From Patescibacteria group bacterium (GTDB lineage Bacteria; Patescibacteriota; Patescibacteriia; Magasanikbacterales; UBA922): a stretch of DNA of 48,508 bases. Position 1 is the stretch's first letter. Each line of letters starts with the position of its first letter. Shown here in pieces: positions 1-42,523 of this stretch. A model generated the notes under the pieces. The model worked only from the letters and a program-made list of their open reading frames with translations, ran no database searches and was not told where the DNA came from. A program made the position numbers and the translations under genes. The DNA is taken from positions 1 through 48,508 of the forward strand of contig DATDUP010000010.1 in the NCBI GenBank assembly GCA_035290345.1. Reading direction: 5' to 3'.

Positions 1-338
1 ATCGCGAAGTTGCCAATCATCGGGGCTGACCGACGCAGCTTTTCTTCCATGTCGGCCGGAATGATGTGAGCTCCGCCGTAAAGAATGGGACCCCAGATCG
101 TGGGCAGGTGCTCATAACCAAGAATCGGACCATCCTTTGCCCGCTGGCACAAGTCCAACATTTCTGATACTGTTCTCTGAAAGATGGCCGCACTTTGCCG
201 GCCGTAAGTGGCCAAGCTGCAGATCATCTTGAGAGCCGCATCCACATCACAGACAAAGATCCGCACCCGGCCATAATCAAACCGGTACAGACGACCGCCT
301 TCCTCATGGACCAATTGCACGTCTACTTCTTCCTTCAT
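1..338 (-). CDS. hypothetical protein; the 3' end runs off the window (112 codons visible, MKEEVDVQLVHEEGGRLYRFDYGRV...)
   Basis: I translated the minus strand from the ATG at 338-336 to the window edge and found no stop. A GGAGGTGAG SD lies 5 nt upstream. The ORF is GC-rich relative to the backbone. It is absent from the ORF track because it is edge-truncated. Confidence 0.55.
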   Translation of the reverse strand, partial: MKEEVDVQLVHEEGGRLYRFDYGRVRIFVCDVDAALKMICSLATYGRQSAAIFQRTVSEMLDLCQRAKDGPILGYEHLPTIWGPILYGGAHIIPADMEEKLRRSAPMIGNFA

Positions 339-359
339 GTCTCACCTCCAAAAGAGCAT

Positions 360-384
360 AAAAAAACAGACCCGAAATGGGTCT
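360..384 (-). terminator. intrinsic terminator-like hairpin inside the 5' leader of the 1-338 ORF
   Basis: On the minus strand it reads AGACCC-AUUUC-GGGUCU followed by G plus U7. It lies only about 20 nt upstream of the SD. Confidence 0.5.
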
Positions 385-484
385 AGTTTTTAAGAGGGTT
401 AGAAGACAAGCTTTTTCCTGCTTTCTGCCCTCCCTGGACAAATTGCGTTGGCTTGTCTTTGGACATCATATAGATATCTGTCAT

Positions 485-514
485 ATTGTAGCACCACCAC
501 CTAACCCGGCTCAA
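485..514 (-). promoter_or_regulatory. sigma70-like promoter for the 1-338 unit
   Basis: The minus strand reads TTGAGC (514-509), an 18-nt spacer, then TACAAT (490-485) preceded by TGC (extended -10-like). Confidence 0.4.
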
Positions 515-535
515 GTCCGAGGCTGTGTATAGATT

Positions 536-703
536 TTACTGCTGACTCTCCGTTTCACCACCTGTGAGCATCCCGGACCAAGAAGCAGGTTCTAGGGAAT
601 CAGCCGGAGCCAACCAATCAAAAAAACAAGCCAACAAAAAAAGCAGACCGCCAAAGCCTGCCACGGCCAAAGCCGTGTATACCACCCATCCTTTCTTTTT
701 CAT
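536..703 (-). CDS. possible small membrane protein (MKKKGWVVYTALAVAGFGGLLFLLACFF...)
   Basis: This is the ATG-initiated part of track ORF 536-811 and has one hydrophobic helix. I saw no SD and no clear promoter. Confidence 0.25.
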   Translation of the reverse strand: MKKKGWVVYTALAVAGFGGLLFLLACFFDWLAPADSLEPASWSGMLTGGETESQQ

Positions 704-728
704 ATCTTGATTAATTCCAACCCCAAGC

Positions 729-772
729 AAAAACCGCCCAAGGCGGAGGTGAACCCTCCTTTTTCTTTGTTT
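729..772. terminator. two back-to-back hairpins with oppositely placed A and T runs (insulator-like)
   Basis: CCGCC-CAA-GGCGG (734-746) is preceded by an A run. GGAGG-TGAAC-CCTCC (745-759) is followed by TTTTTCTTTGTTT. Confidence 0.4.
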
Positions 773-832
773 ATCATGTCCAGCTTTTTTTGCCAAATCA
801 GATATCCACAATTACCGTTCACTGGTCCGCTA

Positions 833-861
833 TTGACAAAATCATAATTTTATTGTATCCT
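833..861 (+). promoter_or_regulatory. sigma70-like promoter for the 900-1346 ORF
   Basis: TTGACA (833-838), a 17-nt spacer, then TATCCT (856-861). Confidence 0.45.
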
Positions 862-899
862 TTCCCTCGTGTTTTCCGAGTTCAACTATGGAGGAAAAG

Positions 900-1346
900 A
901 TGAAATTCGGAACCTGTGTGGTCAACGATGGGAAAGAGTGGGTCGTGTACCTGGAGTTCTACGAAGAGGAAGAAGGCGAGGAGCGTCAGACCGAAAGCAT
1001 GGTCATCGCTTTCAGCCGGGTCCAGGCCGTGAACCATGTCCGGTCCAAGGGGATCGAACCGGAGAAGGTCGACAAGCTCATCGCGGTCCTCGCCCAGTCC
1101 AACCTGCCCGAAGGAGACGGGAAGGACGAACCGCCGGTGGTGGTAGCTGAAGGGCTGGCCGCCAAGTACCTCTCCATCATGGTCGGCCTGATGCGCCACT
1201 ACAAGCGCCAGGCCCAGAGCCAGGACACGGTCTCGGTCACGCTCGTCATCCCGGGTGAGATGTACCGAGCAATGCACGAGACGTGCCCGTGCTGCCACCC
1301 GACGGAGGAGGGCAAGACAGAGGAAGGAGACAAGGCCGACAAATAG
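900..1346 (+). CDS. hypothetical protein, GC-rich, acidic, with a C-terminal CPCCHP motif
   Basis: This is track ORF 888-1346. The second ATG at 900 sits 5 nt after GGAGG. It is followed by a long hairpin (1369-1411) and a terminator. Confidence 0.6.
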   Translation: MKFGTCVVNDGKEWVVYLEFYEEEEGEERQTESMVIAFSRVQAVNHVRSKGIEPEKVDKLIAVLAQSNLPEGDGKDEPPVVVAEGLAAKYLSIMVGLMRHYKRQAQSQDTVSVTLVIPGEMYRAMHETCPCCHPTEEGKTEEGDKADK

Positions 1347-1423
1347 TCGGCATTTGGAAGGAGAGACACGCCGAGCGTGAGTCTGTCGACCGACATCACT
1401 CACGTTCGGCGATAGACTAAAGC

Positions 1424-1452
1424 AACCTATATCAGGTTGTTTTAGTTTTTTT
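1424..1452 (+). terminator. intrinsic terminator
   Basis: AACCT-ATATC-AGGTT followed by GTTTTAGTTTTTTT. It overlaps the 3' end of the convergent ORF 1432-1800. Confidence 0.55.
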
Positions 1453-1800
1453 CTTTCTCCCCTCTGCAAAGGAGAGAAGACAGGAACAATTTTTTTGACG
1501 AAGAATTTCCTGTTGTTCGTGACGGGTGTTGAGCAGAATGGTTTGCCGCGATTTACCGCTGGCCAGAGTTTTATCTAACTGACTGCAATGACGATACCCC
1601 CGCCGCTTCAATTCATGTATTTCTCTTTCGTGACGCAAGTAGAGCGCCTTCAATCTTCCTATCCAGCGCCTTACTTCCGGATGTTGACGATATCCTTTTT
1701 TCTTCTGCGTCAGAATCGTCCAGATAGCATGTAATTCCCGATGTTCGGCCAGGAGATGTTGGCGACAGAGCCAGGATGGAGAGATATCCCAAATACGCAT
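1432..1800 (-). CDS. pyrimidine dimer DNA glycosylase family protein (T4 endonuclease V-like, Pfam Pyr_excise type)
   Basis: The N-terminus MRIWDISPSWLCRQHLLAEHRELHAIW resembles the conserved start of that family. This is recognition only. Confidence 0.55.
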   Translation of the reverse strand: MRIWDISPSWLCRQHLLAEHRELHAIWTILTQKKKGYRQHPEVRRWIGRLKALYLRHEREIHELKRRGYRHCSQLDKTLASGKSRQTILLNTRHEQQEILRQKNCSCLLSFAEGRKKKTKTT

Positions 1801-1809
1801 ATTTTTCCG

Positions 1810-2811
1810 TCATCTTTGCTGTAGCGATACAGACAATCTGGTGACAAACTGGATAATTTTTTTTGCCACATTTCTGGGGCGTCCGTGCGTCGGATGATTA
1901 TGAATATCTAGGGACGGGTTCCCATTGATTTCAAGTATAAAAAAATACTTTTTGTCCGGATACTTAAATATGTCTGTACAAATTAAATCTATACCGATGA
2001 GATTCTTACCAACCATTTTTGACAAAGAAACAGCCATCTTTTTAATCTCTGGGTGTATATCATCGGTGATGTCCTTCGTCTCCCCTCCTTCTGCCAGACA
2101 AGCATTGCCTTTGATGTATATAATTTTATTCTTTGGTAAAACACTTCTCAATTTCACCCCTTGTTTTTTGAGGATATACAGTAATTTTTTGTCAAAAGGG
2201 GTGCGACGCTCTGTAGTATTTTGTTTTGTCTGGATAATTTTACGTACCGTAGATCGACCATCTCCGACAATATGGGGATGAATCATTTGTAAACCAGCGA
2301 TTACCCTATCGCCAAGAACTAAAATACGGTATTCTTTTCCGAACACCATTTCCTGAGCAATCATGCTTTGATACTTGGGGAGATTTTTCCGAATAATCTT
2401 TTGAGCCTCGTGGCCATCCATGATGAACGGAAAAACGCCCTGGCTATTTGATCCATGGGCATTTTTTATGATGATCGGATAAACTAAATTATGTAACTGA
2501 TCTTCTACCTGCCGCCGGTTGTATGTTTTGTAATAAAAGCTTTCAGTTTTAGGAGAAGACCACCCATGAGAAACGAGAAGCTTATACGTAATGTCCTTGT
2601 ATTCAGTTAACCGGCCGCTCACATATGAATTGCGGGTGACGGTGATGTGTCGCTCAAGTAAAAATCGTTTACCAGCCACATTCACATAAAAACAATCGCG
2701 CTCAGGGAGAAACTCCTCAATTGTCCCCCCCATGTCCAAGACTGTATCTCTAATTACCGAAGAATTACTTTTCATGATCTGTATACTCTCACACGTGATC
2801 CAAAAAGTCAA
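1810..2811 (-). CDS. ATP-grasp domain protein (RimK / cyanophycin-synthetase-like ligase fold)
   Basis: Motifs IIIKNAHGSNSQGV, EYRILVLGDRVIAG and FILEINGNPSL. The start at 2811 is TTG; an alternative ATG lies at 2775. Confidence 0.7.
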   Translation of the reverse strand: MTFWITCESIQIMKSNSSVIRDTVLDMGGTIEEFLPERDCFYVNVAGKRFLLERHITVTRNSYVSGRLTEYKDITYKLLVSHGWSSPKTESFYYKTYNRRQVEDQLHNLVYPIIIKNAHGSNSQGVFPFIMDGHEAQKIIRKNLPKYQSMIAQEMVFGKEYRILVLGDRVIAGLQMIHPHIVGDGRSTVRKIIQTKQNTTERRTPFDKKLLYILKKQGVKLRSVLPKNKIIYIKGNACLAEGGETKDITDDIHPEIKKMAVSLSKMVGKNLIGIDLICTDIFKYPDKKYFFILEINGNPSLDIHNHPTHGRPRNVAKKIIQFVTRLSVSLQQR

Positions 2812-2910
2812 AACGATATTTTTTCTTAATCCGAACCAAGAGGACTATTCTCCCTCTTCCATTAGGACCGCTAGAAACTACTAGATCAACCGAATCCGAC
2901 GCGGCCGGAC

Positions 2911-4440
2911 TTATTGCCTCACTATTTTTTTGTTCTCTAGATCAATCAAGAATTTGGCCTGTCCACCCACATTCAATATCCACTGATCAATCGTCCCCTC
3001 TTGCCAGGTCACCCAAGCATCTTTGTTACCATCATTCTCAAAAATCCCTGGTTCATTTGGATTGGCAGACAGACTAGCAGTAAACGATTCTTTTGTCTTC
3101 CAATCATAGACCGCAAAGTTGTAAGCTGACAAGAGGCCATCCATTTCACTTTGTCCCAAAGATAAGATTACGACCACTCGACCGTCAGGAGAAATCTTTA
3201 AAGCTGAATAATAACTATCGAGAATATAAAAATTCGCCAAAGTCGTAAGACTGAAATCAGACATTCGTCCTTGTTCCAAACCAACACTGGAATGGACCAA
3301 ATATGAATCCACAGACAAGGGGGTCACATTATAAAAGAGCCGAAGAGCAACAGGCACCCCGATCCAAGCCTGTCCGTCGTAGTATTCTAAATTTATCGCT
3401 CCATTACTGGCCGGCTGTTCCCGCCAGTTCATATATTCTTCTGGTGGAGGCAAGAGGGCGGCAAATTCGCTGCTCGTCTCATAGCCAACGAGCCTCTTGA
3501 TACGGGCGGCGATAATAAAATCAGCCTTTTTCTCATCATATTTAGCCAACACATCATACCGGCTATCATTTTCTTCATCAGAGTAGACGGCTAACAATTC
3601 CCCATCCACGGTTAACAGGACATCATCAAAATCTACTCTCTCCGCTGATCGGTTCGGAAAAAAATGAGCAGGGCCGAAAGCGACCCATTTATCCAGTTCC
3701 GGGTCATAATGAGACAAACCGCCAGCTGAACCGGCATTGGCGATAACCTCGGCCCAGACTTCTCCACCCTTGGCCCGAACGCGAGAGCTGAAATTGGTTC
3801 CGCCGGTACCCAGTTCATCGTCATAAAAAACCAAATTTCGATCTTGAGTATTTATCCTAGCCACCCCGGCGGTCGTTCCCACCCACAAAGTCTGGCCCAT
3901 TGAGGCAAACTGGAAATTCTCCAGGGTTTTAAAACCGTCTTTCTCAGTATATTTATAGACTACTTGATTCTTCAATAAATCAATTTCGTAAATACCAATC
4001 ATCTGGCAAGCCAAAAACAGTCGGTCGCCAACAATGGTCATACCAAAGTATCTTTCGGAAAAATCCTCAAACTGACAAGGGGCTATTTCCGGCCGGCTAC
4101 GAGCGATGAGTCGGCCCGTGGCGTCAAAACGCAAAATTTTGTTGTCAGCTAAAACAAAAAGATCATTGCCGTATTTTTCCGCGGCCCAAGTATGGATGTA
4201 GCCTTCCCAGTACCCCAACAGATCCTTGTTTTCCAACTCTCCGGCTGATTTGTCAGAAAAATATGAAACAAAAAAAGGCTCGGCCTCAACCATCTCCGAA
4301 TCAGAAGGGAACGCCGCCGCATTCTTTCCCAGCCCAGGTACTTCAGCTGATCTTGGGTGGTTGACCAACCAATACGCCGCCCACGCCAACCCCCCGAATA
4401 TCACCAGGGCGACAATCCACACCACACTCTTTTTTATCAT
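2911..4440 (-). CDS. membrane-anchored extracytoplasmic protein of unknown function
   Basis: A 509-aa ORF with a single N-terminal TM helix (VVWIVALVIFGGLAWAAYWLV). The remainder looks beta-rich. Confidence 0.6.
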   Translation of the reverse strand: MIKKSVVWIVALVIFGGLAWAAYWLVNHPRSAEVPGLGKNAAAFPSDSEMVEAEPFFVSYFSDKSAGELENKDLLGYWEGYIHTWAAEKYGNDLFVLADNKILRFDATGRLIARSRPEIAPCQFEDFSERYFGMTIVGDRLFLACQMIGIYEIDLLKNQVVYKYTEKDGFKTLENFQFASMGQTLWVGTTAGVARINTQDRNLVFYDDELGTGGTNFSSRVRAKGGEVWAEVIANAGSAGGLSHYDPELDKWVAFGPAHFFPNRSAERVDFDDVLLTVDGELLAVYSDEENDSRYDVLAKYDEKKADFIIAARIKRLVGYETSSEFAALLPPPEEYMNWREQPASNGAINLEYYDGQAWIGVPVALRLFYNVTPLSVDSYLVHSSVGLEQGRMSDFSLTTLANFYILDSYYSALKISPDGRVVVILSLGQSEMDGLLSAYNFAVYDWKTKESFTASLSANPNEPGIFENDGNKDAWVTWQEGTIDQWILNVGGQAKFLIDLENKKIVRQ

Positions 4441-4599
4441 ACAAATAACTTAATATATTACCCCCATATCCTAACACAAAAAGAAAAAATCCGCACGATT
4501 TCTTTTTTCCCACCTACGAGCATGTTTTTTACAATTTCGGCCTTCCTGACGACACCGACCACAATGAGTTACCGAATTTTACTAGATTTTAGCCATCAA

Positions 4600-5034
4600 T
4601 CACCGTTTCTTTATCATCTTCACATTCCCCGCTTGAGTCTCTCCTGTCACTACAAAGGCAAATGATTGGTAAAAATGAGTTAAATTTTTTTCTTCCGGAT
4701 CGTAGGTAATTGAAAAGTGCGTATAATCCACAGGAAAATCATTGGCCAAAACCGTCTGCAGTAGTTGTCGTCCAATCCCCTGTTTTCTGTATGAATCTAA
4801 AACAAAAAGGTCGGAGACAAAGACGGAATTAGGCAATTCTTTATGGTCTTTGCCAAAGAGTTGGCACAAAACATAACCAACTACTTTTTTACCGTCTTTC
4901 GCGACCCATACCAGGCTATTTTTCAAAGCCTGCTTAATTTTTTCTTCTCTAGTAATTTCAGAAGAATCAAAAATGATACTCAATTTGAATATTTCCCGAA
5001 TATCACCTAATCTTGACTTTTCAATTTTAATCAT
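4600..5034 (-). CDS. GNAT family N-acetyltransferase
   Basis: An acetyl-CoA motif A-like segment, FVLDSYRKQGIGRQLL, in a 144-aa protein. Confidence 0.8.
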   Translation of the reverse strand: MIKIEKSRLGDIREIFKLSIIFDSSEITREEKIKQALKNSLVWVAKDGKKVVGYVLCQLFGKDHKELPNSVFVSDLFVLDSYRKQGIGRQLLQTVLANDFPVDYTHFSITYDPEEKNLTHFYQSFAFVVTGETQAGNVKMIKKR

Positions 5035-5042
5035 TTTGCAAA

Positions 5043-5687: not shown

Positions 5688-5709
5688 AAAAAGACTAATT
5701 TCAAATAGT

Positions 5710-6327
5710 TTAATTAGAGAAAAATAAACAACTTTGAACCACTGCTTTTACCGCAAAGAACACCAGCAACAGAGCAAATATCTTAAACACGGTAGCGACC
5801 AAATTCTTTTTCAACAACAGTGGCCTAAATCTTGAAAAAGCAAAACCGAGCGAAGTGGTCATCACTAACCAGCCTAATTCCATAGCGACCAAAAAAATAA
5901 TTACCCCACCGAGAATTTGTTCTTGCAATACAAATGCTCGGGGAACACAAACTGTAATCCAAAAAATCCAAAAACCACCATTTAACAAAGTAAGCAAAAA
6001 TATTTTTGAAAAAATAAATACCTCTTTGTTCTCACCATCTATCTTGTCTATTTTCCACACTTTGATCGCTAACCAGATCAGATAAACCGAACCAACTATT
6101 GAGATAACGTAAAAATATGATTCTGGGATATTCAAAGAATATATCACCAACAGTATCGCAGTTGCCACAATTGTCTCCGCAAATAATGCTCTTAATACCA
6201 CTCTTAAACTTTTTTTGAAACCACTATTAAGAACTTCCGTAAAAACAGCAGTAAGCATTGGACCCGGCACCGCCCCACCAATTAAACCAAGCAAAAATAT
6301 TTCTATTATTTGAGCAGTAATTTCCAT
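5710..6327 (-). CDS. LysE/RhtB family amino-acid or metabolite exporter
   Basis: A polytopic membrane protein with an N-terminal GGAVPGPMLTAV motif. The ATG at 6327 is preceded by GAGGA; the track ORF extends to 6384. Confidence 0.7.
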   Translation of the reverse strand: MEITAQIIEIFLLGLIGGAVPGPMLTAVFTEVLNSGFKKSLRVVLRALFAETIVATAILLVIYSLNIPESYFYVISIVGSVYLIWLAIKVWKIDKIDGENKEVFIFSKIFLLTLLNGGFWIFWITVCVPRAFVLQEQILGGVIIFLVAMELGWLVMTTSLGFAFSRFRPLLLKKNLVATVFKIFALLLVFFAVKAVVQSCLFFSN

Positions 6328-6418
6328 ATAGTTATCCTCATCAATTATACTACAAAATCGCCTTTGGAGCGATTTACAAGACATCGTCTAGGGAGTCAGA
6401 ACTGCCTTAAAAAAGGAA

Positions 6419-6438: not shown

Positions 6439-6465
6439 ACTTGATTTAGTCCCTAGTGGCACCTA

Positions 6466-13984: not shown

Positions 13985-14105
13985 AAAAAGACCGTTAAAA
14001 CGGTCTTGGGGCCCTAGCGGGCGGTTCCACCCAAGTTGCCTAGAGGATATCTAGACCACTTTTCTGCCAGCTACAGGGAGCCAATCCCCTGGTTATCACC
14101 GGCCA
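13985..14105 (-). promoter_or_regulatory. compact T-box-type leader (tRNA-sensing riboswitch) upstream of glyQS
   Basis: The minus strand carries the T-box core GGGUGGAACCGCC. The antiterminator reads CUUGGG / bulge UGGAACC / GCCC-GCUA-GGGC / CCCAAG (14035-14005). It shares AAG with the terminator AAGACCGU-UUUA-ACGGUCUU plus a U run (14007-13985). GGC triplets lie upstream. Confidence 0.7.
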
Positions 14106-14139: not shown

Positions 14140-14162
14140 TTGACTACTGTTTAAACAATGAA

Positions 14163-14187
14163 CCCCGCACAAAACTGCCGTGCGGGG
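14163..14187 (-). terminator. hairpin downstream of ORF 14244-14789
   Basis: CCCCGCAC-loop-GUGCGGGG, then UUCAUUGUUU on the minus strand. The U tract is weak. Confidence 0.4.
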
Positions 14188-14243
14188 TAAAAGGTAGGCT
14201 ATTTGAGGAGGAAAACGACAGAGGGAAAAAGAGAAGAAGGCGC

Positions 14244-14789
14244 CTAACCACTGGCAACGTGGACCGGCAATTCGGCGCAGGAAGTAGCTGTGATGTCTGA
14301 TCGGCGGCGCAGGAAGTAACTATCACTGCCCCCCCATTCTCTTTGTTCTGGCCACCACCTCTGAAACCAGTTGCCCTTCTCATCCTGATGGATGTAAGCA
14401 AACTCCCAATCGCCATATTGCCATCTCGTCCAATCAGGAAAAGCGAAAACAACTTTCCCATTTGAGGTGACTGGGATGGGAATATCGCCTTGGTGATCCA
14501 GAAGATGTTGACAATCTTTCTGGCCAAGATCTGCACCCAGATCAGTAGCGCGGGTGCGCAGGACATTCCCGACGATATAACGTTCTCCCGGAAGGAGAAC
14601 CGGAAGGATCTCGTAGATGATTCCTCCCACCGTCATTGCCGCAGGGATACGACTGACCAGGGACCGCTGACGAAGAAAGAAGGTCAAGACCATGACAATA
14701 CTGGCGAACGCCAGGATGAAAAAACAACCCAAAACCAAAATCCAAAAAACCAACCCCCAATCAATCACTACGGCCAGTTCCTTTTCCAT
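14244..14789 (-). CDS. hypothetical membrane-anchored protein, GC-richer than its neighbours, Trp-rich C-terminal domain
   Basis: The ATG at 14789 is preceded by GGGGGGAG. An N-terminal TM region (VFWILVLGCFFILAFASIVMVLTFF) is present. The track ORF extends to 14825. Confidence 0.55.
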   Translation of the reverse strand: MEKELAVVIDWGLVFWILVLGCFFILAFASIVMVLTFFLRQRSLVSRIPAAMTVGGIIYEILPVLLPGERYIVGNVLRTRATDLGADLGQKDCQHLLDHQGDIPIPVTSNGKVVFAFPDWTRWQYGDWEFAYIHQDEKGNWFQRWWPEQREWGGSDSYFLRRRSDITATSCAELPVHVASG

Positions 14790-14842
14790 GTCTCCCCCCC
14801 TGGTTTGGTTTACCTCAAATGTCAAAGAGCAAAAACAGAGGC

Positions 14843-14871
14843 ATCATATATAAAAAATTACTGCTAGTCAA
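14843..14871 (-). promoter_or_regulatory. sigma70-like promoter for ORF 14244-14789
   Basis: The minus strand reads TTGACT (14871-14866), a 17-nt spacer, then TATGAT (14848-14843). Confidence 0.5.
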
Positions 14872-14962: not shown

Positions 14963-15514
14963 CTATACCTTAGTTATTTCTTCTTCTTTCTCGTCAGCAA
15001 TGTTCTTGACATTGTCATTAGCTTCTTTTACCAGTTTCTCCAACTGATCCTGCTGGCTGAATTTTTCGTCTTCACTAATCTCTTTATTCTTCTCGCGTCC
15101 GTCAATTTCTTTTCGCGCATCTTCGCGAATCTGACGGATGGCTACCCGCGCGGCTTCCAACTTTTGATGTAACACCTTGATCAAATCCTGTCGTCGTTCC
15201 TGAGTCAACTCAGGCAGAGGTAAACGGATGACCCGGCCGTCATTGACCGGATTGATCCCTAAATTTGATTGACGCAAGCCGGCTTCTACTGTCTGAGTCA
15301 GACTTTTATCCCAAGGCTCCACCACAATGGTCTTTGCGTCTTGAACTGAAATGGAGGCAACCGCTTTCAAAGGTTGACGTGTCCCATAGGCCTCAACCGG
15401 AACATCTTCCACCAGGGCTGGTGTCGCTCGGCCAGTACGCAGGGCAGAGATTTCATTCTTGAAATGTTCAGCGGCTTTCTTAAAATTATCACGGTAGGAA
15501 TCGAGAGCAATCAT
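14963..15514 (-). CDS. frr: ribosome recycling factor
   Basis: A 183-aa protein with LRTGRA, PLPELTQERR and a typical charged C-terminal helix. Confidence 0.95.
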   Translation of the reverse strand: MIALDSYRDNFKKAAEHFKNEISALRTGRATPALVEDVPVEAYGTRQPLKAVASISVQDAKTIVVEPWDKSLTQTVEAGLRQSNLGINPVNDGRVIRLPLPELTQERRQDLIKVLHQKLEAARVAIRQIREDARKEIDGREKNKEISEDEKFSQQDQLEKLVKEANDNVKNIADEKEEEITKV

Positions 15515-27344: not shown

Positions 27345-27416
27345 GCCGCCATCGTCTAATGGTTAGGACTCCACGCTTTCAATGTGGAAATAGGGGTTCG
27401 ATTCCCCTTGGCGGGA
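27345..27416 (+). tRNA. trnE: tRNA-Glu (anticodon UUC), no encoded CCA
   Basis: A 72-nt cloverleaf with a CUUUCAA anticodon loop and an AGGGG-UUCGAUU-CCCCU T arm. The acceptor is GCCGCCA/UGGCGGG, which gives an apparent G1-G72 mismatch. Confidence 0.85.
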
Positions 27417-27426
27417 CGGTGCTGAC

Positions 27427-27456: not shown

Positions 27457-27473
27457 ACATATATAGAAAAGCC

Positions 27474-27502
27474 TTGACAAACCGAGGTTTTTTTTCCATA
27501 CT
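27474..27502 (+). promoter_or_regulatory. sigma70-like promoter for the asparaginase-family gene
   Basis: TTGACA (27474-27479), a 17-nt spacer, then CATACT (27497-27502). Confidence 0.45.
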
Positions 27503-27620
27503 ACCTCGTCCATTCGATGGACAGCTCAACCAGTCTAGCCCACTGGTTCGGCCCGCTCCTTTAGTAAACTGAACACAAGATTTGGAATTCGGAACTTCAA
27601 CCCTAGGAGAGGTGAGAACC

Positions 27621-28661
27621 ATGAAGATCTACATCCTGAACACAGGAGGGACTCTCGGCATGGTCGGGAACCCGCTTCGCCCCGCCAAGAGCGCCGAAGA
27701 ACTCCTCCAGGGGATCAAGGTCCCCGAAGACCTGGAGTTGACGCTGGCGGACTTCCCGTTGCGTCAGGACAGCACGAACGTGAAGCACCAGGACCGCGCC
27801 CAGATGGCGGAAATGATCGCGGCCGTGTACGACAGGTACGACGGCTTCATCATCCTCCACGGCACCGACTCACTCGCAGAGACGTGCGCGTACCTGGCCA
27901 TGTGCTTCAAGCGGAGCCTCCAGAAGCCGCTCATGGTCATCGGTGCCCAGATGACCAAGGACGAGAGTGGCTCGGACGTGCAGATGCAGATCGAAAACAC
28001 TCTGCGCGTCATACAGGCGTTCATCCGCAACCAGGTCGTCGGCGTCTACAACGTCGTCATGGGCGAGGTCTTGGATGGGGCCCGCGTACGCAAACGCAAA
28101 GACTCCGACTTCGCGGCCTTCTACACGCCGGGGAAGCACCCCGTCGCCTACGCCTGGCCCCACATCATGATCAAGGGTGCCCGCAAGCGTGATCCCGTGA
28201 TCTTCATGGAGGGGCTGCGTCTCCAGACTGAATTCGAGCCATCTGTGGTCTCCATCATGGTGTCGGCTGACACGCCGCCGTATGTCCTGACCGACATGAT
28301 CAGGATGGGCCGTGTGAAGGGCATCATCCTGGAGTGTAAGGGCGCGGGAAATATTCCCAACCGCCCCTGGCAGGAAGACAACGAACAGATCTCCTGGATT
28401 GACGCGATCAAGCTGGCAACCGAGGCGGGCGTGCACGTAGGGATCCTCTCTCCGTTCGATGACGGACGAGTGATCCTTGATCGCTACGAGCTGGGTAGCC
28501 TGGCTAAGGCAGCGGGCGCGATCTCGCTGGAGAGCCTGACGCCCGCCATGGCGGACATAAAGTTCCGTCAGGGCATCGCCCTGCACAGCACTGTTCTCCA
28601 GCAGTTCATCAGCACCAACATGGTCGGCGAGTTGCTCGAGGGCTTCGAGGACATGGGCTAG
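27621..28661 (+). CDS. L-asparaginase/glutaminase family protein (type I-like), strongly GC-rich
   Basis: MKIYILNTGGTLGM (the TGGT catalytic-Thr motif), ILHGTDSL and PLMVIGAQ. The ATG at 27621 sits 6 nt after the GGAGAGGTGAG SD element. The track ORF starts at a TTG at 27582. Confidence 0.75.
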   Translation: MKIYILNTGGTLGMVGNPLRPAKSAEELLQGIKVPEDLELTLADFPLRQDSTNVKHQDRAQMAEMIAAVYDRYDGFIILHGTDSLAETCAYLAMCFKRSLQKPLMVIGAQMTKDESGSDVQMQIENTLRVIQAFIRNQVVGVYNVVMGEVLDGARVRKRKDSDFAAFYTPGKHPVAYAWPHIMIKGARKRDPVIFMEGLRLQTEFEPSVVSIMVSADTPPYVLTDMIRMGRVKGIILECKGAGNIPNRPWQEDNEQISWIDAIKLATEAGVHVGILSPFDDGRVILDRYELGSLAKAAGAISLESLTPAMADIKFRQGIALHSTVLQQFISTNMVGELLEGFEDMG

Positions 28662-28707
28662 TCCTCACGAACCACGAGAACGTCGACAATCGACAAGGAG
28701 GTGAGGG

Positions 28708-28731
28708 ATGTTCTACATCCGACCGCCGTAA
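28708..28731 (+). other. 7-codon mini-ORF MFYIRPP-stop with a perfect SD
   Basis: AAGGAGGTGAGGG precedes the ATG at 28708, and TAA lies at 28729-28731. A CGCTGT/ACAGCG hairpin follows at 28736-28753. Confidence 0.25.
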
Positions 28732-28775
28732 AGGCCGCTGTTTGGGGACAGCGTCAACAAAACCCCATTCGATTG

Positions 28776-28807
28776 TCATCTTTACATATGTACATATGTA
28801 AAGATGA
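28776..28807. repeat. 32-bp perfect palindrome TCATCTTTACATATGT|ACATATGTAAAGATGA
   Basis: I verified base by base that the two 16-nt halves are exact reverse complements with no spacer. Confidence 0.95.
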
Positions 28808-28815
28808 TTGAGATT

Positions 28816-28845
28816 AAAAAAACATCCTTAAATGGATGATTTTTT
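28816..28845. terminator. bidirectional terminator-like hairpin
   Basis: An A7 run, CATCC-TTAAAT-GGATG, then T6. Confidence 0.45.
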
Positions 28846-28937
28846 AATTCACCAAAGTACTAGTAACTGCTCCCAACCATTTTTCTAAATCAAATACCAA
28901 TGAGTGTAAATTATCAGTGCAGTGGTGTACCAAAGAA

Positions 28938-28958: not shown

Positions 28959-28966
28959 GTATAAAC

Positions 28967-28995
28967 AAAAAACCCGTCAAGGTAGATAAAACGGG
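28967..28995 (-). terminator. intrinsic terminator downstream of ORF 29068-29439
   Basis: The minus strand reads CCCGU-loop-ACGGG followed by UUUUUUG. A longer imperfect hairpin lies at 29017-29056, just after the stop codon. Confidence 0.5.
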
Positions 28996-29067
28996 GGAAT
29001 AATTACTTGAAGGCCGGCTGGGGGATCAAGAGTTCGCAGACTCAAGACCCCCCAGCTCGACTCGTTG

Positions 29068-29439
29068 TCAACTGGGACGACGACAGAGAACGAGAACATC
29101 ATTCTCTGGCCCGCCCTTTCTCACCCAGTCCTTAACCGGGCGATCGAGGGACAACCACACTTCTTCATAGCTGTCCCCATTCCAACGGAAGGCTAGAACG
29201 CGTCCTTGAACTTTCCAGCCAGTGACCAGGAGGAATGATTTGAAACAGGAGGGGATGCCCAACCGGTCATTCCTGAACCTCTTGGCCTCTTCCTCGCCAA
29301 TGGCATTCGACACCCGGCGAAGCACCTCATGGCCGCAGAAGGTCTCCTTCCAGATCCCCTCCCCCTCCTCCATGAAGCCGATTGCTTGAAAGATAATCCC
29401 CCAACGCTCAAACCAGATACCAAATTCCTTCCTAGCCAT
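29068..29439 (-). CDS. hypothetical protein, GC-rich
   Basis: This is track ORF 29068-29445. I preferred the second ATG (29439) because it lies 6 nt after GGAGGG. I recognised no motif. Confidence 0.5.
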   Translation of the reverse strand: MARKEFGIWFERWGIIFQAIGFMEEGEGIWKETFCGHEVLRRVSNAIGEEEAKRFRNDRLGIPSCFKSFLLVTGWKVQGRVLAFRWNGDSYEEVWLSLDRPVKDWVRKGGPENDVLVLCRRPS

Positions 29440-29624
29440 GGCCATCCCTCCGGTTGTCGATCCGTGTCTATAAATCCATCATCAATCCAAAATGAACTTA
29501 TAGTTTTGTACCAAAAAAGGCCTCTCCGTCAAGATGTACAGAGCGTAAATGCCCAATATAATAGTGTATTAGAATCATAAACACCCGTCCGGATGTTTTT
29601 GTGATATTAAAAATCTTGTCCTTG

Positions 29625-34317: not shown

Positions 34318-34325
34318 AAACTTTT

Positions 34326-34738: not shown

Positions 34739-34741
34739 AAT

Positions 34742-37192: not shown

Positions 37193-37196
37193 ATGA

Positions 37197-38228: not shown

Positions 38229-38241
38229 ATATTTATTTTAT

Positions 38242-39384
38242 TCATTTGATAAGGCCAAGAATGTCCCGTCCAGTGACCACCACAATCAAAGCTAACAAAA
38301 GAATATAACCAATAGCATGTGCGGCCTGTTCATATTTAACCGGCACCGGCCGACGTAGAACTTTTTCTAAAAAAACAAAAACTAAACGACCGCCGTCCAA
38401 AGCCGGAATAGGAAGAATGTTAATCGCGGCCAAACTCAAAGAAATCATGGCAGTGACGTTAATCAAATAATTCAAACCAAGTCGAGCACTGTCCCCCACC
38501 ATCACCGCAATACCAACTGGTCCGGAAACTTCAAAAGCTAATCCTTGCCCGAGGATGAGATTTTTAAGCAACAGGTAAAAAGCAATAAAAATATTAATCA
38601 AACCAATACCAGCAGCAGTGAAACCTTTGATAATTGCCCAATACCACGGATATTTAACCATGGCCGCATCTGCCAACATCACCCCCAGGCGCGGATAACT
38701 ATCGCCCGGTTTGATTAAAGCCGGAGTAATGTCCACAGTTTGTTCTTTTTCATCTTTGCTTATGGTCACGGCCACGGCCTGTCCTCCCGCCGCCTTTACT
38801 AACTCCACCATTTCGGCGGAACCAACAATGTCTTGACCATTGATCTTAGTCACCCGGTCACCATAACGGATCCCTGCTTTTTCGGCTGGCGAACCTGCTT
38901 CCACATGCTGGACCATGACCTGAGGTTCACCAATTACTTGCGCTCGCGGATCCTGGCCCAAAGATAAATCCGTTGGCAAACCAATCATAAAACCAACACT
39001 CAACAAAATCCCGGCCAAAATAATATTCATCAAGACACCGGCAACCAAAACCAACATTCTCTTTCCCGGCTTTTGAAAAGCAAAACTATCTGCATCGGTT
39101 TGGCCGCCACCTTCTTCACCCTTGATACGCACAAAACCTCCTAAAGGCAGTAAATTTAGAGAATACACTGTGGCAGGCAATTCCGTTGCTTTTTTGTTTT
39201 TTCCCCACACCCAAACCATTTTCTTTTTTTCTGGATCCTGATATACGCCAAAAAGCCGGGGCGGAAACCCAAAACCAAACTCAAAAATTCGCATTTTTGC
39301 CCAGCGGGCCGTTAAAAAATGCCCAAATTCATGCGCCAAAACCAAAACGGCCAAAACGGCGATGAATAACAATACTGTTTCCAT
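38242..39384 (-). CDS. rseP: RIP (site-2) zinc metalloprotease of the M50 family
   Basis: HEFGHF near the N-terminus, a central PDZ-like segment and a C-terminal LPIPALDGG. Confidence 0.9.
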   Translation of the reverse strand: METVLLFIAVLAVLVLAHEFGHFLTARWAKMRIFEFGFGFPPRLFGVYQDPEKKKMVWVWGKNKKATELPATVYSLNLLPLGGFVRIKGEEGGGQTDADSFAFQKPGKRMLVLVAGVLMNIILAGILLSVGFMIGLPTDLSLGQDPRAQVIGEPQVMVQHVEAGSPAEKAGIRYGDRVTKINGQDIVGSAEMVELVKAAGGQAVAVTISKDEKEQTVDITPALIKPGDSYPRLGVMLADAAMVKYPWYWAIIKGFTAAGIGLINIFIAFYLLLKNLILGQGLAFEVSGPVGIAVMVGDSARLGLNYLINVTAMISLSLAAINILPIPALDGGRLVFVFLEKVLRRPVPVKYEQAAHAIGYILLLALIVVVTGRDILGLIK

Positions 39385-39484
39385 AATTGACCGGCCTTTC
39401 TCTTCAATGATACAATTAATAGGGAAATTATCTCATACCAAGAGATAAAATTCAACAGGAGGGAAAGACTCTTAACTTTTACCT

Positions 39485-40048
39485 ATGCCGGTTCTCTATA
39501 TCAGCCTAGCCGTAGTCGCAGCCATCGTCCTCTGGCTAGTCTTTGTCTATAACGGTCTGATCCGTTTGCGTAATCGCACCCAAGAAGCATGGAGTGATAT
39601 TGATGTCCAGTTAAAACGCCGTCATGATTTGATCCCCAACCTGGTCAACAGTGTCCGGGGCTATATGGAGCATGAAAGAAATCTGTTAGAAAATATCACT
39701 CGCGCTCGTTCTCAGGCCCTTTCTGCCCAAGAAGCTGGAAACAAGGAAGAATTAGGTAAGATTGAAAGTCAACTAGGAACGATGTTGGGAAAATTGCAAA
39801 TTGCGGTAGAAGCCTATCCTGATTTAAAGGCCAATCAAAACGTTTCCCAACTAATGGATGAACTTTCCGATACAGAAAATAAAATTCAAGCCGCTCGCCG
39901 TTTCTACAACACTCAGGTACGCGACTTCAATACCAAGATGGAAGTCTTCCCGACTAATCTAGTGGCCCAAAGTTTACATTTCACCAAATTTGCTTTCTTT
40001 GAGATCGCCGAAGCCAGTGAACGCGAAAACATAGAAGTAAAACTCTAA
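39485..40048 (+). CDS. lemA: LemA family protein
   Basis: An N-terminal TM helix, YNGLIRLRN, and RRFYNTQVRDFNTKMEVFP. Confidence 0.9.
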   Translation: MPVLYISLAVVAAIVLWLVFVYNGLIRLRNRTQEAWSDIDVQLKRRHDLIPNLVNSVRGYMEHERNLLENITRARSQALSAQEAGNKEELGKIESQLGTMLGKLQIAVEAYPDLKANQNVSQLMDELSDTENKIQAARRFYNTQVRDFNTKMEVFPTNLVAQSLHFTKFAFFEIAEASERENIEVKL

Positions 40049-40052
40049 AAAC

Positions 40053-40934
40053 ATGTACAACCAGATTGATTCCAATAAACGCAAAACCGCGTTGTTAATC
40101 GCGGTCTTTCTTGTTTTTTTCCTGGCTCTAGGTTGGTTTTTAGGTGTCTATCTAGGCCATGGGTACGGTGTCTTTGCCCTTTGTCTCTTACTCTCTTTGG
40201 GTATGACCTTAGTCAGTTTTTTCCAAGGAGACAAAATCGCTCTATCTACCACCGGAGCCAAAGCTATAAACAAAGAAGACAACCCCTATGTCTATCGTCT
40301 GGTGGAAAATCTGGCCATCACCGCTGGTTTGCCTCTACCTAAAATTTACATCATTGACTCTCCGGCCATGAATGCTTTTGCCACTGGCCGCGATCCCCAA
40401 CATGCTTCTCTGGCTCTGACCACCGGCCTGATCCAAAACTTGGAGAATGAAGAGTTAGAGGGAGTAATCGCCCATGAATTGTCCCATATCCAAAATTACG
40501 ATATTCGACTGATGACCATTGTCGTTGTTTTAGTGGGGGCAATAACGCTTCTGGCCAATATCTTCTTCCGCACCCGCGGGCTGACCTCCCAACGCAATGA
40601 CAACCGCCACAACGGTCAATTAGGAGCAATTATTGCTGTCATCGGCGTTCTCTTGATTGTCCTGTCCCCGATCATTGCTGAACTAATCAAGCTGGCCATT
40701 TCCCGCAAACGAGAATTCTTGGCCGATGCCTCCGGAGTAATGCTGACCCGATATCCCGAAGGTTTGGCCAAAGCCTTGGAAAAAATAAGTCAATCCACAA
40801 TCCCTCTTAATACTGCCAACTCTGCCACCGCCCATCTCTTCATCAGCAATCCCTTTAAATCCCAATCTTGGCATCGCCTGTTTTCCACTCACCCTCCCAT
40901 TCCAGAAAGAATCGCCAAACTCCGAGGACAATAA
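40053..40934 (+). CDS. htpX: M48 family zinc protease HtpX
   Basis: HELSHIQN (HExxH), four TM segments and a downstream EFLAD. Confidence 0.9.
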   Translation: MYNQIDSNKRKTALLIAVFLVFFLALGWFLGVYLGHGYGVFALCLLLSLGMTLVSFFQGDKIALSTTGAKAINKEDNPYVYRLVENLAITAGLPLPKIYIIDSPAMNAFATGRDPQHASLALTTGLIQNLENEELEGVIAHELSHIQNYDIRLMTIVVVLVGAITLLANIFFRTRGLTSQRNDNRHNGQLGAIIAVIGVLLIVLSPIIAELIKLAISRKREFLADASGVMLTRYPEGLAKALEKISQSTIPLNTANSATAHLFISNPFKSQSWHRLFSTHPPIPERIAKLRGQ

Positions 40935-40940
40935 TAAATA

Positions 40941-41011
40941 ACGAAAAAACAGCCCAATTTGAGCTGTTTTTTGTGAGCCGTCTTTTTGAATGGTAGACGG
41001 CGAGAACCAGG
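40941..41011 (-). repeat. terminator module, copy 1 (71 nt), containing a bidirectional terminator and a second hairpin
   Basis: ACGAAAAAACAGCCCAATTTGAGCTGTTTTTTGTGAGCCGTCTTTTTGAATGGTAGACGGCGAGAACCAGG. It matches 41745-41815 at 69 of 71 positions. It also serves as the terminator for the convergent htpX. Confidence 0.9.
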
Positions 41012-41047
41012 AGGTTAGACAGTTAGACGGAAGGTGTAGGAACGGAT

Positions 41048-41614
41048 CTACGAACAGCGGTGGATATACGGGTACCGGCGTTCGACGAACGCCAGTGCCG
41101 GTGCTCCCAGCAGGATGGGAATGGTCCCACTCCCTCCTTGAAAAATTGACGTGCAACTCCAAAGGAGGAAGACGAACATCAGGTAGCACCAGTAGAGACT
41201 TGGCGGGTCAAACGCCACTTCTGGTCTCCAAGAATTCCCCTGGTGCCAGCTTGTCATGGCCTTCCAGGCCAGGTACGGCAGCAGAACAGCCGCGGCCGCT
41301 GCGGCTGCGAAATGCCATGGCCCCCATGCCTGGCTGGCCGTCTGCTCCCAGAAGGCGGAAAGCAACGCCGCTGCCACCCCCACGACCAGGGACGGCTGGG
41401 TGACGATCCGGCCGTACGCTGCCGCCAGCATGCTTTCCCCATGCTGGGCCAACAGCACCAAGCCGAGAGGGAACGCGAAGATCAGCAGCAGAACAACGAA
41501 ACCGGCAAGGACGACGTACATCATCACCTCCTGCCCGATGCCGGACAGAAGAAACGACCAGGTCGCCGCGATTGCTACCATCTTGAACGAATTACTGCTA
41601 ATTTCCTTCATCAT
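41048..41614 (-). CDS. hypothetical polytopic membrane protein, GC-rich (cassette 1)
   Basis: The ATG at 41614 is preceded by GGAGGTG. There are four or more hydrophobic segments. The track ORF extends upstream into the promoter. Confidence 0.6.
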   Translation of the reverse strand: MMKEISSNSFKMVAIAATWSFLLSGIGQEVMMYVVLAGFVVLLLIFAFPLGLVLLAQHGESMLAAAYGRIVTQPSLVVGVAAALLSAFWEQTASQAWGPWHFAAAAAAAVLLPYLAWKAMTSWHQGNSWRPEVAFDPPSLYWCYLMFVFLLWSCTSIFQGGSGTIPILLGAPALAFVERRYPYIHRCS

Positions 41615-41672
41615 GATGCACCTCCGAAGTGGCCCACCAACGGGCTGTTTTTTTACCTTCCTTGTAAAGATC

Positions 41673-41721
41673 AACCTCAAATGAACGCCGTAGTATAGCA
41701 CAAAAACCCCCTTTTGTCAAG
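41673..41721 (-). promoter_or_regulatory. promoter module, copy A (about 49 nt)
   Basis: The minus strand reads TTGACA (41720-41715), 17 nt, TATACT (41697-41692), then ACGGCGTTCATTTGAGGTT. It is nearly identical to 42475-42523. Confidence 0.65.
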
Positions 41722-41744
41722 TTGTCAAGATGGTGATAGAAGAT

Positions 41745-41815
41745 ACGAAAAAACAGCCCAATTTGAGCTGTTTTTTGTGGACCGTCTTTTTGAATGGTAG
41801 ACGGCGAGAACCAGG
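41745..41815 (-). repeat. terminator module, copy 2 (71 nt)
   Basis: It matches 40941-41011 at 69 of 71 positions (AG versus GA at two adjacent positions). Confidence 0.9.
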
Positions 41816-41861
41816 GATGAAACGGAAGGCAGAAGTAGCAACCAGAAAGGTCGCTGAGGGG

Positions 41862-42413
41862 TCAGATGTCAAGGTATCGGTGATCGATGTTAAGGTCCTG
41901 ATTTCTTTCGAGCCACCTCATCCCGAACATCCCCATGGCAGCCATCATGACTATCCATTGATCCGGGACAAGGTTGGCCGAAACTATGGTGCAATACAGG
42001 ACTGCATACCACAGCATCGACGCCCAATTGAACCAGTCGTCGGCTGTCGGCCACTTGCTCTTGATAGCTACCCGGTTTGAGAACCAGGCGACCCAGACAG
42101 CGAGGGCACAGACAATGGGCGTAAGGTATCGCACCCATTCCCAGCCCATGGTCGAGAGGGTAAAGAGGAAGGCATAACTACGTACCAGACCCGGCGTTCC
42201 CTGCACCGGCTCACTGGGACACCTCATGGCAGACTTCAACGCCATCGACCCCACCCTCAGCAGGGGCAGACCAATGGCCAAGATGCCGGCGATGGCTGCC
42301 ACGAGCCGGCAGTACTCGGTGTCTGACAACCCCCGAATCACGGCCTTAGCAATCGCAATCGCAAAAGCCGTATTGATGTACGTCATGACTTCGTCTTTCT
42401 CATAGTGCAACAT
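41862..42413 (-). CDS. hypothetical polytopic membrane protein, GC-rich, Trp-rich (cassette 2)
   Basis: The ATG at 42413 is preceded by AAAGGGGGAAAG. There are several hydrophobic segments. I saw no similarity to the cassette 1 protein. Confidence 0.6.
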   Translation of the reverse strand: MLHYEKDEVMTYINTAFAIAIAKAVIRGLSDTEYCRLVAAIAGILAIGLPLLRVGSMALKSAMRCPSEPVQGTPGLVRSYAFLFTLSTMGWEWVRYLTPIVCALAVWVAWFSNRVAIKSKWPTADDWFNWASMLWYAVLYCTIVSANLVPDQWIVMMAAMGMFGMRWLERNQDLNIDHRYLDI

Positions 42414-42474
42414 CTTTCCCCCTTTGGCCCGCGGCCGATAGATAGTTTCATCCGTAAATTGAATTGAAAGGTAC

Positions 42475-42523
42475 AAACCTCAAATGAACGCCGTAGTATA
42501 GCACGAAAAACCCCTTTTGTCAA
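42475..42523 (-). promoter_or_regulatory. promoter module, copy B (about 49 nt)
   Basis: The minus strand reads TTGACA (42522-42517), 17 nt, TATACT (42499-42494), then ACGGCGTTCATTTGAGGTT. Confidence 0.65.

Follow-up and report, generated by a model that had tools for sequence, protein, structure and literature searches.

Bacteria of the candidate phyla radiation (CPR, Patescibacteria) have tiny genomes and depend on other cells. Several known systems invite comparison with the locus described here. Hendrix and colleagues reportedly described the morons of lambdoid prophages, Omelchenko, Koonin and colleagues are said to have described xenologous gene displacement in situ in 2003, and translation independent of Shine-Dalgarno (SD) pairing, with few SD-bearing genes, was reportedly found in Bacteroidota by Nakagawa in 2010 and by Jha and colleagues in 2021 (the latter cited in PMC9723584). 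The closest counterparts are the islets acquired by horizontal gene transfer (HGT) in Patescibacteria, where about 83% of the inferred transfers came from other Patescibacteria and up to 13% of genome length was attributed to HGT (PMC12455944). Here we analyzed a 48,508-nt stretch of a Patescibacteria group bacterium (GenBank assembly GCA_035290345.1, contig DATDUP010000010.1, forward strand; hereafter the window) and found seven GC-rich, single-gene units at four intergenic loci, denoted cassettes 1a, 1b, 2, 3a, 3b, 4a, and 4b after their locus (islands 1 to 4). These units are probably horizontally acquired, monocistronic, self-insulated islets at intergenic hot spots of a CPR chromosome.

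Like the islets reported previously (PMC12455944), the units deviate in GC content and codon usage, lie between conserved genes, have variable content at their sites, and point to transfers mostly among Patescibacteria and DPANN archaea. Island DNA makes up about 9% of the window, compared with the up to 13% of genome length reported. The units differ from those islets in that each is a single gene with its own promoter (near-consensus in five of seven), a strong SD, usually a double-hairpin terminator, and no mobility gene nearby.

We examined the composition of the window. The original prediction, made from the sequence letters, had placed seven open reading frames (ORFs) and one mini-ORF in GC-rich islands, and all eight were found at the coordinates claimed. 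A sliding-window GC analysis resolved seven patches, with one ORF in each (approximately 1-350, 885-1410, 14190-14805, 27505-28760, 29015-29455, 41000-41630, and 41805-42430). The prediction had counted four units; our count is seven monocistronic units at four loci. The islands total 4.45 kb (9.2% of the window) and have a mean GC of 0.571, compared with 0.444 elsewhere. Single islands range from 0.51 to 0.60, so that the predicted contrast (about 55-62% against about 40%) held, with figures slightly too extreme at both ends. GC content at third codon positions (GC3) was 0.54-0.85 in the island ORFs and 0.34-0.53 in 35 backbone ORFs. Codon usage was scored as a z value for the leave-one-out synonymous-codon likelihood relative to backbone ORFs, and five of the seven island ORFs were strong outliers (z = -4.2 to -6.3). 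Composition and codon usage thus both differ from the host, as they do in islets.

The islands also differ from the backbone in their translation starts. Every SD string quoted in the prediction was present, and the eight island starts had a mean anti-SD duplex energy of -10.1 kcal/mol (range -7.3 to -12.0). The 36 backbone starts had a mean of -2.35 kcal/mol (Mann-Whitney p = 1.4e-5), which bears out the claim that the native genes are SD-poor. The regions upstream of most backbone starts were AT-rich and G-poor. Judging from these upstream sequences, translation of the organism's own genes appears not to rely on SD pairing. The backbone thereby resembles the Bacteroidota reportedly translated without SDs, in which upstream regions are likewise AT-rich and unstructured; it differs in that the host belongs to the CPR and that SDs precede foreign cargo instead of conserved regulatory targets such as rpsU. 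To our knowledge, such a contrast in SD use between islands and backbone has not been described before. SD-like motifs also directly follow the stop codon in cassettes 1b and 3a and in one cassette of the locus L084, and they resemble leftovers of a gene that came next in a donor operon.

Each unit had been predicted to carry its own TTGACA-type promoter and to be fenced by hairpin terminators. Near-consensus TTGACA-17-TATnnT sites, matching at 10 or more of 12 positions, were found 5' of five of the seven units (833-861, 14843-14871, 27474-27502, 41692-41720, and 42495-42523). The promoter claim failed for the other two: for the unit starting at 338, the site at 485-514 matches at only 9 of 12 positions, and the unit starting at 29439 has no promoter with legal spacing, a TTGACG lying 24 nt from a TATAAG. 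The terminator claim held for all six complete units. When their 3' ends were folded, five showed two structures, a GC-rich hairpin on the inner side and, after it, an intrinsic terminator with A- and T-run flanks (z = -5.2 to -8.2), and the sixth showed a single terminator (z = -2.2). With promoters in five of seven and terminators in six of six complete units, the cassettes have the autonomous promoter-ORF-terminator structure and deviant composition of morons. We also observed that the -35 hexamer TTGACA can lie in the loop of a terminator-like hairpin with A-run and T-run flanks, at 42495-42530 (minus strand), at approximately 6790-6830 of L172, and more weakly at 27467-27502. The T-run of this hairpin is the promoter spacer, forming a compact 'terminate, then restart' element, and the L172 spacer agrees with the island-4 promoter spacer at 13 of 17 positions by manual count.

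We then compared the loci with those of relatives. A tblastn search of 80 related dnaE loci gave no match to the island proteins, and the synteny comparison that the prediction had called for showed that the cargoes of islands 3 and 4 are not at the same loci in relatives. In the closest relative (L001), the gap from tsaD to tRNA-Glu is 420 bp, compared with 2268 bp in the window, where it holds cassettes 3a and 3b. The interval from htpX to pgm is about 200 bp in L014 and 1617 bp in the window, where it holds 4a and 4b. Relatives thus keep the flanks but lack these cargoes between them, so that islands 3 and 4 are insertions. The tsaD/tRNA-Glu gap of L001 holds a different unit (15079-15291, plus strand), with a TTGACA promoter, the SD AAGGGGGG, a 70-amino acid (aa) membrane ORF that is GC-richer than its surroundings by eye, and a terminator. 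From its sequence, this gap would be the same hot spot with another cargo.

GC-rich, mostly SD-led genes in AT-rich contexts were also found in L002, L004, L005, L006, and L084. Six relatives have a native, AT-rich prs gene after dnaE. In L004 (13603-14550) and L006 (13557-14546), a GC-rich, SD-led prs occupies the exact slot of the native gene. These two genes are 42-47% identical to the native prs of L002, similarly distant from the other native genes, and 51% identical to each other. L002 (13605-15469) has added GC-rich prs-like and udk (uridine kinase) genes beside its native prs. Nucleotide-salvage genes thus appear to have been repeatedly displaced or supplemented in the relatives. The prs genes of L004 and L006 recall xenologous displacement, as does the GC-rich asparaginase gene of L093, which lies directly 5' of an apparent native, AT-rich asparaginase gene. 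The cargoes of the window are instead additions, with no native homolog replaced. In L005, a GC-rich island of more than 7.5 kb (GC 0.54-0.68) carries an AAA_21/DUF4435 ATPase and an SprT-like gene.

Cassette 3a (27474-28851, plus strand) has the only cargo that could be assigned to a family. It consists of the promoter (27474-27502), a 5' untranslated region (UTR) of about 115 nt, the SD GGAGAGGTGAG, an ORF of GC3 0.85 and codon-usage z = -6.2 (27621-28661; a protein collection records a later start), the mini-ORF (28708-28731), a GC-rich hairpin (approximately 28733-28755), a conserved palindromic hairpin (28775-28811), the motif ATTGAG, and a bidirectional terminator (28823-28838; 3' fold z = -6.5). 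The product matched Pfam PF00710 (N-terminal, E = 2.4e-32) and PF17763 (C-terminal, E = 5e-11), and the closest solved structure was E. coli AnsA (E = 5e-24). In a 40-sequence alignment, the HGTD motif was invariant and the TGGT residues nearly so. The cargo is predicted to be a type-I-like L-asparaginase, an enzyme of amino-acid scavenging; its score is below the NCBIfam equivalog cut-offs, which places substrate specificity outside this claim. One 13-mer, CAAGGAGGTGAGG, is found after the stop codon of an island's final GC-rich gene in both the window (28708-28731) and L084 (5538-5560). In the window it leads into the 7-codon mini-ORF (MFYIRPP), and the two together are probably the start of the next gene in the donor operon.

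The asparaginase recurs in other genomes. A search of 5.8 billion proteins gave over 140 homologs of it, none closer than 70% identity, and all those with a named source are from CPR (Kaiser-, Magasanik-, Nomura-, and Doudnabacteria) or DPANN archaea. This agrees with transfer mostly within Patescibacteria (PMC12455944). The foreign composition from which the prediction had read GC-rich, SD-using donors was upheld, and the one placeable cargo would come from the CPR/DPANN gene pool and not from an ordinary GC-rich phylum. We retrieved the DNA of about 40 homolog loci and found GC3-rich asparaginase genes as single-gene GC peaks in AT-richer contigs in the window, L084, L093, L100, L171, and L172. 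All six have an SD, and the other loci share no synteny with the window. The sharpest peak was in L093 (0.62-0.66 against a background of 0.27-0.41). The four GC3-rich proteins compared are 68-75% identical and cluster in a neighbor-joining tree, with the product of an L102 gene that is not GC-rich (GC3 0.38) nested among them. Other homologs (59-69% identity) have near-native composition and usually lack an SD. The predicted recent acquisition was not supported: the best homolog is 70% identical, and GC3-rich forms occur in six or more AT-rich genomes, with 68-75% identity between the four members compared.

DNA similarity between the window and L084 ends at the start and stop codons, except for an 85-nt non-coding 3' module. 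In this module, an inner hairpin (CATCTTT...AAAGATG) and ATTGAR are combined with an A-run and an intrinsic terminator; its copies in the window, L084, and L093, three unrelated contexts, are homologous (alignment z = 5.5-13.4; none of 500 shuffles reached the score). At least for the asparaginase cassette, part of the AT-rich wiring therefore appears to travel with the gene, and the predicted wiring of the islands with host-type promoters and terminators is doubtful for this cassette. The module was rejected in L171 and L100, where alignment scores were at shuffle level, and RNAalifold on four sequences returned no structure, owing to misalignment. We also observed, by eye, a 5' leader of about 100 nt apparently common to the GC-rich asparaginase genes of L093 (approximately 5860-6000) and L100 (approximately 5870-6000). 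It contains a long hairpin with compensatory changes and a GGAGGTG 5' of the real SD, and could be a cis-regulatory RNA. Rfam gave no match in the asparaginase leaders of the window or L086, and a T-box suspected by eye in the L086 leader was rejected, the search giving just a chance-level PyrR match. In L171 (3963-4343), just 5' of the GC-rich asparaginase cassette, tRNA-Gln (4044-4115) has a truncated 5' copy of itself before it and a partial copy of its 3' end (ggttcgaatcctag) after it. These copies may have been left by an integration event at the tRNA.

Island 4 consists of two units on the minus strand, arranged head-to-tail with a period of 803-804 bp. Cassette 4a (40941-41721) comprises a terminator frame (T-frame, 40941-41011), an ORF (41048-41614) led by the SD GGAGGTG, and a promoter frame (P-frame, 41673-41721). 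The ORF encodes a 188-aa multi-pass membrane protein (GC3 0.74, z = -5.0). Its promoter, TTGACA-17-TATACT with a TG (41692-41720), matches at 11 of 12 positions, and its terminator is a bidirectional 13-pair hairpin. Cassette 4b (41745-42524) comprises a T-frame (41745-41815), an ORF (41862-42413) with the SD GGGGGA, encoding a 183-aa membrane protein (GC3 0.71, z = -4.2), and a P-frame (42476-42524). The two 71-nt T-frames are 97% identical and the two 49-nt P-frames 96%, and the SDs and UTRs between the frames are unrelated. The two units were rejected as diverged duplicates of each other (BLASTP E = 5.4; in-register DNA identity 0.25, as for random sequence), and a small rise in identity at in-phase offsets reflects codon periodicity. 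The T-frame of 4a is the bidirectional terminator of htpX, and the P-frame of 4b shares sequence with the pgm terminator, whose hairpin loop contains the -35 hexamer of that frame. The island-4 T-frame gave no match in JGI metagenome contigs. In the simplest history, the DNA would have entered between the two convergent terminators of the host, and the frames would then have been copied by local duplication or recombination; a possible alternative is exchange of the ORF between identical frames. A comparable arrangement was found in L084, where three GC-rich cassettes are bracketed by three copies of a structured intergenic repeat of about 90 nt (932-1020, 2014-2102, and 3922-4010; 66-84% identity). 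Copies of this repeat, a terminator hairpin set in a longer inverted repeat, lie beside the cassettes and also between native genes, and they resemble repetitive extragenic palindromes or miniature inverted-repeat transposable elements.

The remaining cassettes carry small proteins. The ORF of cassette 1a (1-338, minus strand) begins at 338 and is truncated at the edge of the window, leaving 112 aa (GC 0.54, GC3 0.62). Its SD, TGGAGGTGAG (343-352), has an energy of -10.6 kcal/mol. The upstream region (367-514) holds the weak promoter-like TTGAGC-18-TACAAT with a TG at 485-514 and, just before the SD, a terminator-like hairpin, TAGACCCATTTCGGGTCTG, with a T-run (367-385) that scores on both strands. 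Cassette 1b (833-1448, plus strand) has a TTGACA-17-TATCCT promoter (833-861), an ORF for an acidic 148-aa protein (900-1346; GC3 0.83, z = -6.3) with the SD GGAGG 5 nt 5' of the ATG (-9.3 kcal/mol), a hairpin (approximately 1369-1411), and a terminator (1414-1448); its 3' region folds to -55.5 kcal/mol (z = -8.2). Cassette 2 (14162-14871, minus strand), between frr and glyQS, has a TTGACT-17-TATGAT promoter (14843-14871), the SD GGGGGGGAG (-10.5 kcal/mol), an ORF of GC3 0.54 (14244-14789), and an 11-pair terminator (14162-14188). Its 181-aa protein has an N-terminal transmembrane helix, the only part modeled confidently by single-sequence AlphaFold. Cassette 3b (28960-29455, minus strand) lacks a canonical promoter and has the SD GGAGGG (-10.0 kcal/mol), a 123-aa ORF (29068-29439; GC3 0.65, z = -4.2), a hairpin (approximately 29013-29061), and a terminator (approximately 28967-28995; 3' fold z = -5.3).

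A word-indexed search of 5.8 billion proteins found no homolog of the 1a protein, and the cassette 2 protein matched only itself in that collection. Among 1.84 billion representatives, the 3b protein matched itself and, weakly, three others; in two of these three the match was to repeats of a very large protein. AlphaFold models of two orphans (predicted local distance difference test scores of 51 and 44, the latter for 3b) were too poor for a fold search. None of the six non-enzyme cargoes matched Pfam, PADLOC, or NCBIfam, and their sole PHROG match was weak (E = 0.0046). Transmembrane segments were found in at least three of these six proteins, which makes a role at the cell surface or in host contact plausible but weakly supported.

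The link between SDs and GC3 extends beyond the window. We surveyed 1027 ORFs from 67 AT-rich CPR loci with a simple ORF caller, taking energies at or below -7 kcal/mol as a strong SD. A strong SD preceded 4% of the ORFs within 0.1 GC3 of the locus median, 44% of those 0.2-0.3 above it, and 50% of those more than 0.3 above it (p = 9e-9). Internal in-frame ATGs of the same GC3-outlier ORFs had no SD signal (p = 0.003), and the enrichment is therefore not just a matter of G-richness or composition. GC-biased gene conversion was set aside as a source of the GC-rich genes, since the flanks that would recombine are AT-rich.

Taken as acquired islets, the units would be seven foreign segments of 0.35-1.3 kb, one gene each, that entered between genes at four sites: the window's left edge, frr/glyQS, tRNA-Glu/tsaD, and between the convergent terminators of htpX and pgm. 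Each would act as an autonomous, insulated expression unit, with a sigma-70 promoter near consensus (in five units; weak or none in the others), a short leader, a strong SD, and one ORF. The SD could recruit the 30S subunit onto a GC-rich, structured mRNA that is poorly served by the host's AT-rich, SD-free initiation, and the intrinsic terminators, usually after a GC-rich inner hairpin, would keep transcription out of the adjoining operons. The strong SD probably matters for function, whether as the donor's habit or as a filter on retained imports. The segments may have come by horizontal transfer from GC-rich, SD-using sources within or near the CPR/DPANN pool, been taken up by transformation-like DNA import, and been integrated or exchanged by recombination at intergenic terminator or repeat sequences instead of by an integrase.

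Several observations weigh against this reading. Cassettes 1a (3-338) and 2 (14244-14789) are only mildly deviant in codon usage (z = -1.2 and -1.4). SD function in this cell is inferred. All six GC3-rich asparaginase genes (0.85-0.91) are in AT-rich genomes, and no donor was found, the best match being only 70% identical. Even CPR contigs of 0.51-0.55 GC lack SDs, and four moderately GC-rich ones (L104, L105, L114, and L126) are unlikely donors for that reason. All three non-asparaginase cargoes searched (3-338, 14244-14789, and 29068-29439) are homolog-free, which is odd for a recent transfer from a sampled lineage. Finally, the near-identical frames of 4a and 4b around unrelated ORFs, with variable segments of 661 and 660 nt, are not predicted by independent insertion.

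The last of these would be explained by a dedicated, integrase-free cassette pool among the CPR, whose members carry non-coding ends of their own, namely a promoter, at times placed in a terminator loop, and a double hairpin with terminator at the 3' side, and swap or stack by recombination at shared intergenic frames, with GC richness and SDs as stable lineage properties and not a fading donor trace. This is a rather improbable alternative, though one with several observations on its side: the 3' module common to three asparaginase cassettes in unrelated contexts, the leader hairpin seen by eye in both L093 and L100, the bracketed cassettes of L084, different cassettes at the same intergenic sites in different lineages, and the six of six GC3-rich asparaginase genes in AT-rich genomes, no GC-rich genome natively carrying this group having been seen among the roughly 40 homolog loci. 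However, the frames of island 4 are the htpX and pgm terminators, so local duplication explains them, and the JGI metagenome contigs gave no copy of the T-frame. Neither a recombinase nor a circular intermediate was seen, and the position of L102 inside the GC-rich asparaginase group points to ordinary amelioration. No motif is common to all cassettes; a candidate boundary motif, ATCTTT...GATTGAR with a hairpin, was rejected because it occurs only after asparaginase genes, and eight other matches in 2.2 Mb are at chance level. The broader proposal, that SD-independent, AT-rich CPR genomes share GC-rich, SD-dependent single-gene cassettes that move and stack, integrase-free, at terminator repeats between genes and maintain their GC, and that these form a new integron-like system, we consider unlikely.

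The other explanations fare worse than acquired islets on the same evidence. Were the units prophage remnants, true phage morons, or degenerate integron cassettes (like clusters of attC sites lacking integron-integrases, CALINs), their deviant composition and promoter-gene-terminator structure, the small orphan and membrane proteins typical of phages, the position of cassette 3a beside a tRNA gene, and end hairpins that superficially recall attC sites would all fit. Like lambdoid morons, each unit lies between two undisturbed genes, and like integron cassettes, the units are single-ORF with hairpin-forming ends, with unrelated ORFs stacked between repeated non-coding elements in island 4. This origin is nevertheless very doubtful. 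None of the seven proteins had a confident PHROG match (best E = 0.0046) or any PADLOC match, and none of the five scanned against IMG/VR (including 1b, 4a, and 4b) had a close relative. The units lie in a cellular chromosome among housekeeping operons and not between phage genes, so that the predicted 'moron-like' character holds as a functional analogy only. No integrase or transposase was found in Pfam scans of the island ORFs and 20 backbone ORFs or in the precomputed Pfam labels of the other backbone genes. The 3' 25-mer of tRNA-Glu occurs once in the window with up to three mismatches allowed, leaving no direct repeat at the far border, and island 3, though abutting this tRNA, thus lacks both marks of a tRNA-targeted integrative island. 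The predicted setting between housekeeping operons, free of mobility genes and tRNA-derived repeats, was thereby confirmed. In contrast to integron arrays, the units have their own promoters, stand singly or in pairs on both strands over four loci, and lack intI, and motif comparison found no attC-like end motif common to them (no attC covariance-model scan was made). Assembly or binning chimeras, in which reads of a GC-rich organism were joined into a CPR contig, are extremely unlikely. GC transitions are classic chimera sites, and three short contigs of the same strain stop within about 200 bp of island borders (L081 starts at 27641, L088 ends at 14029, and L089 ends at 14188), which may reflect assembly-graph branching from cassette variation in the population. 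But islands 2 and 3 were reproduced base for base, at 99.95-100% identity, in four contigs from different samples or runs and assemblers (ENA ERZ27254852, Logan SRR3989339, JGI 3300002209, and ENA ERZ28563708), and the cassette 2 locus is identical in three other assemblies. Since they recur in assemblies from other samples or runs, islands 2 and 3 are not chimeras; islands 1 and 4 are outside this confirmation. For all seven patches, a size of 0.35-1.3 kb with exactly one gene each is unlike mis-assembly, the junctions lie at functional promoter or terminator elements with all ORFs intact, and the same pattern occurs in many unrelated metagenome-assembled genomes (MAGs). It is equally hard to credit that the units are native genes of a special expression class, recognizable by GC-rich codons and SDs and subject, for instance, to condition-specific, SD-dependent translation. 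In CPR loci generally, GC3 outliers are linked to SDs, the GC-rich asparaginase forms persist across deep divergence, and SD-poor Bacteroidota reportedly retain SDs on a few genes for regulation. Yet close relatives lack the cargoes at these loci, the cargoes of different lineages are unrelated, neither of the highly expressed native genes rplJ (GC3 0.53) and rplL stands out in codon usage, and asparaginase homologs of other CPR genomes are native in composition and lack an SD.

The backbone is assigned, from gene content and order, to a syntenic housekeeping stretch of a Candidatus Magasanikbacteria chromosome. Its DnaE is 56-70% identical to those of 20 Magasanikbacteria-like genomes, the best-matching MAGs are labeled Candidatus Magasanikbacteria, Parcubacteria, or Patescibacteria, and the order htpX-lemA-rseP-pheS-pheT-dnaE-tsaD is kept in those Magasanikbacteria-like MAGs. 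The island neighbors (tpiA, glyQS, frr, holB, mreB, rplJ/rplL, tsaD, dnaE, pheST, htpX, pgm, and a clpC-like gene) are all housekeeping genes by Pfam. The native tRNA-Glu(UUC) at 27345-27417 (plus strand; ARAGORN and Rfam) borders the insertion site of cassettes 3a and 3b and adjoins rplJ also in L001 and L009. An L10_leader (Rfam RF00557; 27106-27250, minus strand) lies 5' of rplJ and scores 49 bits against a gathering score of 44. A native ribosomal-protein autoregulatory leader is thus present in this CPR genome, adjoining the island-3 insertion site. AT skew rises to 0.38-0.50 at 47000-47800, inside an ORF (46831-48180; 449 aa, no Pfam match) whose coding region is strongly A-rich. In L172 (1-3432), gyrA contains an intein, with Pfam Intein_splicing between two DNA_topoisoIV matches.

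The finding is real and well delimited, and it is of a known kind: horizontally acquired islets, with unusual details. The points of added interest are the link between SDs and GC3 in CPR, the recurrent asparaginase cassette with its 3' module, and the identical frames around unrelated ORFs. The combination of GC3 and a strong SD offers a simple screen for foreign genes in SD-poor CPR genomes, and raises the question of whether GC-rich foreign mRNAs owe their translation in an SD-independent host to SD-led initiation. The asparaginase cassette with its traveling module and the tandem cassettes with identical frames hint at integrase-free exchange, which would be of wider interest if confirmed. 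The few genes that CPR bacteria gain from outside show how they adapt.

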